Shown one piece after another: positions 46,559 through 47,392 of a DNA stretch of 64,000 nucleotides. The DNA comes from Cirrosporium novae-zelandiae (taxonomy: Eukaryota): NCBI GenBank assembly GCA_026023565.1, contig JAPETS010000001.1, positions 1 through 64,000 of the forward strand. The letters are read 5' to 3'. A program made the translations under genes and the position numbers. The notes below the pieces were generated by a model that had not been told where the DNA came from, ran no database searches, and saw only the letters and a program-made list of their open reading frames with translations. Each line of letters begins with the position of its first letter. Positions within the stretch are counted from its first letter, which is position 1.

Positions 46559-47392
46559 TCAGGCGGTAGATGAGATAACACTTAACCTCTGCAGATCAAC
46601 CTCTCCCAAGTTCCTCATGTCAATCTCATGAGTCGTAGGTGGCTCTAACGGGCTGAACACTATAGGGTCATCCCGCGGGATCTTTCCAAACATCTTTTGA
46701 ATTGTATCCCCAAAGGCTGACAATAGATCGACATTGGCATCGATTTTTACTGTTGCAGTAAACAATTCCATATCATCCTCACGGCGGCCCAGCAACACAG
46801 CAGTCCGTAAGAACGTGGGCACGCCACTTCGCCGTGAAGAATTTTCAAGCAAAGTCCACTCAGCTGCGTTCTTCTTCCCCCCTTCCTTATGGTTCCTGAA
46901 CCGTATCATACCAGAAACCTTTGTCGTATCCATCTTATCCATGGAGTTGGTAAGCTCCCATCCAAATCCGGCACCGACCTGAACTCCAATTCCACCCTCC
47001 ACAGAAAGGTTTGCCGAGCGCTTTAGTTCCACTTTTTCTGTCGTTGGATATAGCGAGAAATGACCGAATGGCGCGATGCTTCGTACTTCGGGATCAAAGT
47101 GAGCACGGTTGGGATCAGTGGTCGCAAACACGATTGAAATATTCACTTCCGTGAATCGTCTCTTCAGCCTCGTAGGTTGGAAATTGAACTCGAAAATAGC
47201 GAGTGTGCAAGGAATATTGGAATCAGGGCATAAAAGCCCATGAACCACTTCGGCAAGCTTGCATTGGACGACTAGAGCATTGCCACGCTCAACAACTGAA
47301 GATCGTTGAAGCTGGCCTGGCTCGTTCTTGAGGCAAAATTCGGCACCTTCATCGCCTAGGGGCTCGAGGTCAACTTCAAACAAGAGTGACAT
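46559..47392 (-). CDS. Uncharacterised 277-aa cytosolic beta-rich protein; candidate beta-pore-forming effector
   Basis: Intact single-exon ORF with no signal peptide or TM helix. An alternating hairpin SANLSVEGGIGVQVGAGFGWELT has S/T/K-rich flanks. The function is inferred. Confidence 0.85.
   Translation of the reverse strand: MSLLFEVDLEPLGDEGAEFCLKNEPGQLQRSSVVERGNALVVQCKLAEVVHGLLCPDSNIPCTLAIFEFNFQPTRLKRRFTEVNISIVFATTDPNRAHFDPEVRSIAPFGHFSLYPTTEKVELKRSANLSVEGGIGVQVGAGFGWELTNSMDKMDTTKVSGMIRFRNHKEGGKKNAAEWTLLENSSRRSGVPTFLRTAVLLGRREDDMELFTATVKIDANVDLLSAFGDTIQKMFGKIPRDDPIVFSPLEPPTTHEIDMRNLGEVDLQRLSVISSTA

Follow-up and report, generated by a model that had tools for sequence, protein, structure and literature searches.

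Positions 1 to 64,000 of contig JAPETS010000001.1 of Cirrosporium novae-zelandiae (assembly GCA_026023565.1), here called the window, contain a 277-amino-acid (aa) open reading frame (ORF) at 46559..47392 on the minus strand. This ORF, the target gene, lies between a convergent gene resembling the nucleotide-binding oligomerization domain-like receptors (NLRs) and a divergent gene encoding an ankyrin-subtilase. The target protein was predicted to be an all-beta molecule similar to the alpha-hemolysin/leukocidin toxins and to carry one long hairpin whose amphipathic pattern was conserved throughout a large family of relatives. We examined the gene, this candidate membrane-inserting hairpin and the neighbouring genes, and the results suggest a cytosolic pore former under local control.

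The target gene and its family

The target gene was delimited from the ORF list, an alignment to the family profile and the fold prediction. Because the family profile aligned without gaps to residues 5-276 (E 1e-101), the ATG-to-stop frame was concluded to be a complete, intron-free gene, and the profile detected a single copy of the domain within the 64-kb window. An earlier, sequence-only reading of this DNA had described an amphipathic hairpin string at residues ~117-160 (nucleotides ~47044-46913) together with several distinctive blocks. The string was present at residues 117-161 (nucleotides 47044-46910) and all of the blocks were located in the ORF, with WTLLEN at residues 179-184, SGVP at 189-192, LRTAVLL at 195-201 and PRDDPIVFSP at 239-248.

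The same reading had called the protein an orphan, a description that did not survive an exhaustive HMMER search. A word-indexed search returned just two relatives, the fungal proteins P0002 and P0003 (37-38% identity). The HMMER search of 1.84 billion cluster representatives, formed at 50% identity, detected 714 related clusters at E ≤ 1e-3, of which 449 reached E ≤ 1e-10 and 69 reached E ≤ 1e-30. The nearest ESM Atlas clusters, with 122, 374 and 58 members, were 86-98% eukaryotic, and Ascomycota was the commonest group. A Pfam scan of 87 aligned members matched no family at E ≤ 0.01, apart from single chance hits; for the target itself, a sub-threshold match to zf-TRAF_2 (E 0.018) was dismissed as noise. 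Sequence searches of the PDB with the protein and with the family profile gave nothing beyond chance, the top match of the profile being a catalase (E 1.3). No relative was found in a scan of metagenome contigs using the alignment profile and P0004 as queries, and none was detected when prokaryotic genomes were searched with the target by a method that recovers close relatives only. Judged by these sequence comparisons, the target belongs to a large, so far unnamed Ascomycota family. The number of related clusters, the full-length ungapped profile match and the confidently predicted fold described below effectively refuted the explanation that the target is a chance ORF or a pseudogene, which we consider extremely improbable.

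The predicted fold and its hairpin

AlphaFold2 (AF2) modelling with an 87-sequence alignment produced an all-beta structure with one very long hairpin (predicted local distance difference test [pLDDT] score of 87.2, predicted template modelling score of 0.82), the strands of which were assigned by DSSP to residues 110-129 and 143-164. A second AF2 model utilized a shallow alignment of 11 sequences and was aimed at a state with the hairpin packed on the cap. This model reproduced the topology at a lower confidence (pLDDT 68), and the hairpin was again extended; both predictions therefore placed the hairpin outside the globular fold and not buried within it. Helices in the two models were just 4-6 residues long.

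A Foldseek search of the PDB detected 67 matches at E ≤ 1e-3, of which the best were Vibrio cholerae cytolysin (VCC; E 4.3e-6) and NetB (E 5.3e-6). All 30 of the matches listed, covering ranks 1-47 of the 67, were toxins of the alpha-hemolysin/leukocidin family, and these included VCC, NetB, LukGH, NetF, gamma-hemolysin, CytK, alpha-hemolysin (aHL), beta-toxin and Epx. The structural likeness was moderate, with 5-12% identity, Foldseek template modelling (TM) scores of 0.25-0.35 and 141-194 residues matched in chains of 253-581 residues; residues W179, R196 and R203 were conserved. The hairpin of the model aligned to pore-form structures of NetB, VCC, LukGH and aHL, in which the stem is present. 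A separate model from the ESM Atlas had TM scores (by query) of 0.50-0.53 to four bacterial clusters, three of which were of the leukocidin family (Leukocidin on 93-100% of members) and one of which was unnamed (13%). Comparison of Atlas language-model features identified PF07968 Leukocidin as the nearest Pfam-named cluster, at 0.87, with the aerolysin and ETX/MTX2 clusters each at 0.82; feature scores below 0.9 serve as leads only. As the similarity was moderate and there was no sequence match to PF07968, we use the wording "hemolysin-like fold" and do not assign the target to PF07968. On the evidence of the models, it is very likely that the target has such a fold.

The PF07968 family includes aHL, gamma-hemolysin and LukGH of Staphylococcus aureus; NetB, NetF, beta-toxin and delta-toxin of Clostridium perfringens; CytK of Bacillus cereus; V. 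cholerae cytolysin; and Epx of Enterococcus. These toxins form heptameric to nonameric rings with a 14- to 18-strand barrel and are secreted via an N-terminal signal peptide. The target resembles them in its predicted structure, which combines a beta-sandwich cap with a strictly amphipathic, glycine-rich stem hairpin at the centre, and in its size, with model residues 29-253 spanning aHL residues 23-291. The aHL rim domain carries an aromatic/phosphocholine-binding pocket. With ~45 fewer residues aligned than in aHL, the rim of the target domain may be reduced.

The sequence-only reading had likened the hairpin to those of aerolysin/ETX-type and gasdermin pores. Its general idea, a protein akin to beta-pore-forming toxins, was upheld by the fold prediction and by the family-wide alternation described below, but the families named were not the best match: the monomer prediction and fold search led to the alpha-hemolysin/leukocidin family throughout the structural matches listed (Foldseek and VIA-align), among which aerolysin, ETX/MTX2, gasdermin and MACPF entries were absent. 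An aerolysin/ETX-MTX2-type or gasdermin-type pore former would share the amphipathic insertion hairpin with its polar flanks and would agree with the two Atlas feature scores of 0.82, as leads; the 277-aa size, the short C-terminal tail and an S8-protease neighbour furthermore resemble the fungal gasdermin HET-Q1 (PMC8851545). However, no Pfam family of these types (including PF01117 and PF03318) was matched by the target at E ≤ 0.1 or by the 87 members at E ≤ 10, the sole aerolysin-named entry being an APT domain (PF03440) in one member at E 0.034, which was read as chance. Gasdermin N-domains are mixed alpha/beta structures with two inserting hairpins, a layout that differs from the single long hairpin and near absence of helix in both models of the target. 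We consider an assignment to these types very improbable.

The amphipathic pattern was analysed in a profile alignment built from 159 proteins, which together gave 164 domain hits. Residues 117-161 (46910..47044, minus strand), which make up the outer portion of the long hairpin together with its tip, were delimited as the candidate stem from DSSP analysis of the two models and from the alignment to pore-form toxins. Within this region, column hydrophobic fractions and a shuffle test defined a strictly alternating core at residues 126-146 (46955..47017, minus strand). One face of the core consists of A127, L129, V131, G133, I135, V137, V139, A141, F143 and W145; the other consists of S126, N128, S130, E132, G134, G136, Q138, G140, G142, G144 and E146. 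The hydrophobic fractions of columns 127 to 147 were.64,.03,.79,.04,.84,.12,.57,.06,.47,.18,.86,.07,.87,.04,.62,.06,.85,.14,.90,.03 and.38. Strict alternation held from column 126 to column 146, a stretch of 21 columns; no other run in the protein was longer than 9, and 10,000 column shuffles never gave a run of that length (mean, 6.4; maximum, 18). The polar face was mostly G, S, T, N, Q or E, position 145 was W (88) or Y (26) in 114 of 157 sequences, and the flanks (residues 117-125 and 148-158) were rich in T, K, E and R. Because strict alternation was kept across ~158 relatives while the residues themselves varied, the alternation noticed in the single sequence is real and conserved among homologues.

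The moderate structural likeness and the extended hairpin could be read differently. A non-lytic beta-sandwich module, serving NLR signalling as an adaptor or as a unit for oligomerisation or ligand binding, would use the hairpin as a protein-protein interaction arm, and it would look like hemolysins because the beta-sandwich arrangement is a common one. We regard this as unlikely. Formation of membrane pores by the target, as suggested by the fold models, is probable, although held with less assurance than the fold itself.

Three further segments of the protein differed in conservation and model confidence. The N-terminal segment, residues 1-30 (47303..47392, minus strand), was defined from conservation, pLDDT, hydropathy and charge. 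It retained the motif F.I.L..GD.G..[FY][RH].KN.PG..QR family-wide, with L9 in 113/131, N23 in 118/145 and R30 in 127/150 sequences, and was modelled poorly despite this conservation (pLDDT 43-55). A candidate inter-subunit latch that becomes ordered only within an oligomer would fit both properties, and these 30 residues may have that role. Residues 221-240 (46673..46732, minus strand) form a flexible, indel-prone loop according to pLDDT (58-65 and 39-52 in models 1 and 2, respectively) and column statistics, and the loop ends in the conserved motif [LVFM][FL]G[KR].P.DDP. Its flexibility and this hydrophobic-hydrophobic-G-K/R motif suggest that the loop may be a protease-accessible site. The C-terminal strand and tail, residues 241-277 (46562..46672, minus strand), were delimited from pLDDT, conservation and the ends of the structural alignments. 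A conserved DDPVxFDP strand is followed there by the tail motif [IYF]D..NLG.[VL]DL..L..V, with L262 in 145/153 and L267 in 128/148 sequences, and the segment had a pLDDT of 93-98 in model 1. Alignments to aHL-family chains stopped at model residues 251-254, so that the last ~24 residues of the tail extend past them. The tail, which the sequence-only reading had proposed as a cleavable inhibitory peptide, may be a regulatory or auto-inhibitory element.

Cellular location was assessed by crude hydropathy and not with a trained predictor. No signal peptide was detected in the target by this test: residues 1-30 had a net charge of -5, no hydrophobic stretch and a highest 8-residue hydropathy of 1.3, and the mean hydropathy of 19-residue windows nowhere exceeded 1.22. 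A hydrophobic 8-mer occurred in the first 35 residues of 2/159 family proteins, and both instances were read as a core beta-strand of the domain. The target protein is most likely cytosolic, on this sequence evidence, unlike its bacterial look-alikes.

Neighbouring genes and fused relatives

The NLR-like gene convergent with the target (40836..46104, plus strand) was assembled from Pfam matches, upstream frames and a tblastn search with relative P0006; its actual start probably lies slightly further upstream, at around 40650. A DUF676/SesB-like alpha/beta-hydrolase region was recognised by its motifs in the plus-strand frames 40836-41093, 41094-41264 and 41362-41640. It is followed by a 1439-aa plus-strand ORF (41785-46104) with a NACHT domain (Pfam NPHP3_N, E 2.7e-14) and ~13 ankyrin units (Ank_2, E 6.5e-139).

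In two relatives, the target domain precedes the NACHT domain in one gene model, whereas in the window it is a separate convergent gene. P0006 (2023 aa), which is 44% identical to the target in the domain, was collinear with both window genes in the tblastn analysis: aa 7-270 matched the target, aa 317-518 matched 40839-41559 and aa 621-2017 matched 42163-46086. It contains the target domain at 7-270, NPHP3_N at 617-711 and ankyrin repeats, and its middle region (290-560), in which Pfam finds nothing, was DUF676/PGAP1-like by Atlas features (0.92-0.97). P0095 (2243 aa) has the domain order of P0006 plus SPRY, with the target domain at 25-238 and NPHP3_N at 568-661. A FastTree analysis of 153 domain sequences put the target, P0006 and P0095 at three separate positions, with the target and P0095 in different clades, each with a support of at least 96%. 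A search for longer fused forms by alignment profile detected nothing, which is weak evidence.

Two sites in these NLR-like proteins were unusual. Hydrolases of this kind are expected to have a GxSxG nucleophile motif. At the expected position, the window reads AHDLGG (within 41094-41264, plus strand) and P0006 reads GVDIGG (~420-435), with Asp for Ser, and P0095 reads GHGFGG (~400-415), with Gly for Ser; the hydrolase domain of the NLR may use Asp or be inactive. At the expected Walker A site (GxxGxGK[ST]), residues ~80-100 of the NLR ORF (window ~42020-42080, plus strand), the sequence is WKEALRSKAL, and by eye P0006 and P0095 are likewise without an obvious GK[ST].

The gene divergent from the target (47856..51208, plus strand) encodes a 998-aa protein with ankyrin repeats and a C-terminal Peptidase_S8 (subtilase) domain, as determined from S8 fragments and the exon map of gene model P0160. 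Two frames matched S8 profile positions 3-85 and 97-254, and six exon blocks were mapped to 47856-51205, with ~10 residues of the model left over. P0160 is 99% identical to this neighbour and carries Ank_2, Ank and Peptidase_S8, the last at 721-929 (E 6.3e-16 for the whole protein); the Asp, His and Ser motifs are present as D728, H768 and S915. The start codons of the two divergent genes are just 464 bp apart (interval 47393-47855), and this proximity suggests that they share a promoter region.

A HET-domain ORF (54573-56627, minus strand; HET E 2e-34) and a HET-domain ORF fragment (60331-60849, minus strand; HET E 7.5e-6) lie ≤14 kb from the target, which indicated that the region holds several genes of the non-self-recognition type.

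These surroundings bear on whether the target could be an offensive toxin, exported unconventionally or freed on lysis and directed against competing microbes or grazers, with the neighbouring genes unrelated to it. The structural relatives among the matches listed are all secreted bacterial toxins, and the subtilase linkage is known from one locus, as such a toxin would allow. By crude hydropathy, however, the target is without a signal peptide, and an early hydrophobic 8-mer was detected in just 2/159 relatives, where it looks like a core strand; its domain is fused to cytosolic NACHT-ankyrin architectures in two relatives; and the gene itself is flanked by NLR, ankyrin-S8 and HET genes. An offensive role is accordingly quite improbable, even more so than a non-lytic one.

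Proposed mechanism and comparison with known systems

We infer a pathway of trigger, ring assembly, barrel insertion and cell death. The target protein would be made without a signal peptide and held as a soluble monomer, with the C-terminal tail (~254-277) packed on the cap. The trigger would arrive via one or both of the clustered genes. The hydrolase-NACHT-ankyrin NLR could act by concentrating the target protein or by serving as its template, a clustering that would be direct in the fused forms, and the ankyrin-subtilase could cut loop 221-240 or the Pro-rich linker 249-256, releasing ~2.5-5 kDa, as HET-Q2 acts on HET-Q1; a cut within the loop would release ~42 residues. Protomers would then assemble into a ring, in which the conserved, unmodelled N-terminal 30 residues may be the latch, and the stems (117-161) would together build a beta-barrel across the membrane, its A/L/V/I/F/W side exposed to lipid and its G/S/N/Q/E side turned to the lumen. 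The fungal membrane would become leaky, and the resulting death of the compartment would be part of a non-self or immune-type regulated cell death. On balance, we lean slightly towards the target being a cytosolic beta-barrel pore former that executes cell death under the control of an NLR, a protease or both. That the neighbouring subtilase in particular activates it, as analogy suggests, is a tentative proposal that we are inclined to doubt.

Several points weigh against this reading. The extended state of the hairpin is only predicted, with a pLDDT at the tip (130-142) of 58, or 36-47 in model 2. PF07968 was matched by 0/87 family members at E ≤ 10, and by the target not at all at E ≤ 0.1. 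The NLR link rests on the window locus and two fused gene models, and P0006 and P0095 could be gene-prediction read-throughs of adjacent same-strand genes instead of true fusions; either way, the linkage recurs. The Walker A site looks degenerate by eye, so that the NLR may not be a working switch and its clade may be a degenerate nucleoside triphosphatase. Confident modelling of the tail inside the fold is as compatible with a built-in structural role as with inhibition. The link to the subtilase comes from one locus, that of this window.

Comparison with the alpha-hemolysin/leukocidin toxins, the best and near-exclusive structural matches among those listed, also detected clear differences. 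There is no detectable sequence similarity, and the target is fungal and has no signal peptide. It is also distinguished by a conserved N-terminal segment and an additional conserved tail at the C terminus, and its domain is fused to or beside NLRs and here also beside an S8 protease. If the models are right, the kingdom, the cell compartment and the regulatory context are all new for this known toxin fold.

Aerolysin and ETX families are activated by removal of a terminal peptide. The target is like the aerolysin/ETX-MTX2 proteins in its amphipathic hairpin with polar flanks, but it gave no Pfam match to them and none among the structural matches listed, and the feature score of 0.82 is weak.

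The closest parallel in gene layout is the HET-Q1/HET-Q2 system of Podospora anserina. In PMC8851545, HET-Q1 is reported to shed a C-terminal fragment of ~5 kDa when the subtilisin-like HET-Q2 is present; 63% of the fungal gasdermin genes (1,187/1,884) cluster with a gene for an S8 protease; and the clustered proteases usually have long extra regions, often with ANK, TPR or WD40 repeats, some being NLRs. Like HET-Q1, the target is a candidate beta-pore former of the cytosol that ends in a short tail and has an NLR connection and incompatibility-type gene surroundings, and its S8 neighbour with N-terminal ankyrin repeats has an architecture of the class reported there for HET-Q2-like proteins. 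It differs in its hemolysin-like, all-beta fold with one hairpin and in a protease linkage seen at one locus versus the 1,187/1,884 of that report. Because of the parallel with HET-Q1/HET-Q2 (PMC8851545), the subtilase neighbour provides circumstantial support for a cleavable tail. By analogy, the locus copies the gasdermin-protease layout with a different pore-former fold.

A second parallel is with the HeLo/HELL effectors exemplified by HET-S/NWD2. Like the effector domains described in PMC9815663, the target domain occurs as the N terminus of an NLR (P0006 and P0095) or as an adjacent stand-alone gene, and a membrane-targeting killing function is proposed for it. HeLo/HELL effectors are helical bundles, whereas the target domain is all-beta. 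HeLo-type effectors are activated via amyloid motifs common to the effector C terminus and the NLR N terminus; by eye, no amyloid signalling motif shared by the C terminus of the target and the N terminus of the NLR was seen. The target domain is not among the NLR effector classes listed in the papers searched, and the words hemolysin, leukocidin, beta-sandwich and DUF676 had 0 occurrences in 11 supplementary files of PMC9815663. The word "hemolysin" likewise had 0 occurrences in two reviews and a Sordariales NLR survey (PMC12881547, PMC10197012 and PMC12258605). A full-text literature search, mostly outside subscription journals, found no hemolysin/leukocidin-like protein linked to fungal NLRs, incompatibility or cell death.

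Regulated cell death in fungi has so far been explained by HeLo/HELL helical bundles, gasdermins, and patatin and other enzymes. The target family might represent a third class of executioner beside the HeLo/MLKL-like and gasdermin classes, namely, a cytosolic, hemolysin-fold pore former that is widespread in Ascomycota and wired to NLRs and ankyrin-subtilases; we consider this a real possibility, although doubt slightly prevails. If pore-forming, the family would bring another executioner fold into fungal immunity. Control by a clustered protease and/or NLR would then be a logic common to unrelated pore formers, and the alpha-hemolysin fold would reach from secreted bacterial toxins to a self-directed eukaryotic immune effector.

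A function for this large unnamed family would also name hundreds of "hypothetical proteins." Among 10 clusters looked up, this was the source name of all stand-alone members; fused or extended members also bore UniRef names derived from their other domains. Several longer architectures were observed among the relatives. A clade of longer proteins of 411-459 aa (P0048, P0106, P0119, P0079 and P0034) has an additional long low-complexity linker at the C terminus, followed by a shared ~20-residue motif, RLLLHAVRKG.EV.AEAVS. In P0133 (712 aa), the target domain is accompanied by a CorA-like region at the C terminus (PF01544, E 3.2e-8), in which two hydrophobic segments occur. In P0081 (660 aa) and P0148 (599 aa), the domain lies behind N-terminal Cys/His-rich heads, and P0081 is labelled "C2H2-type domain-containing" by one source.

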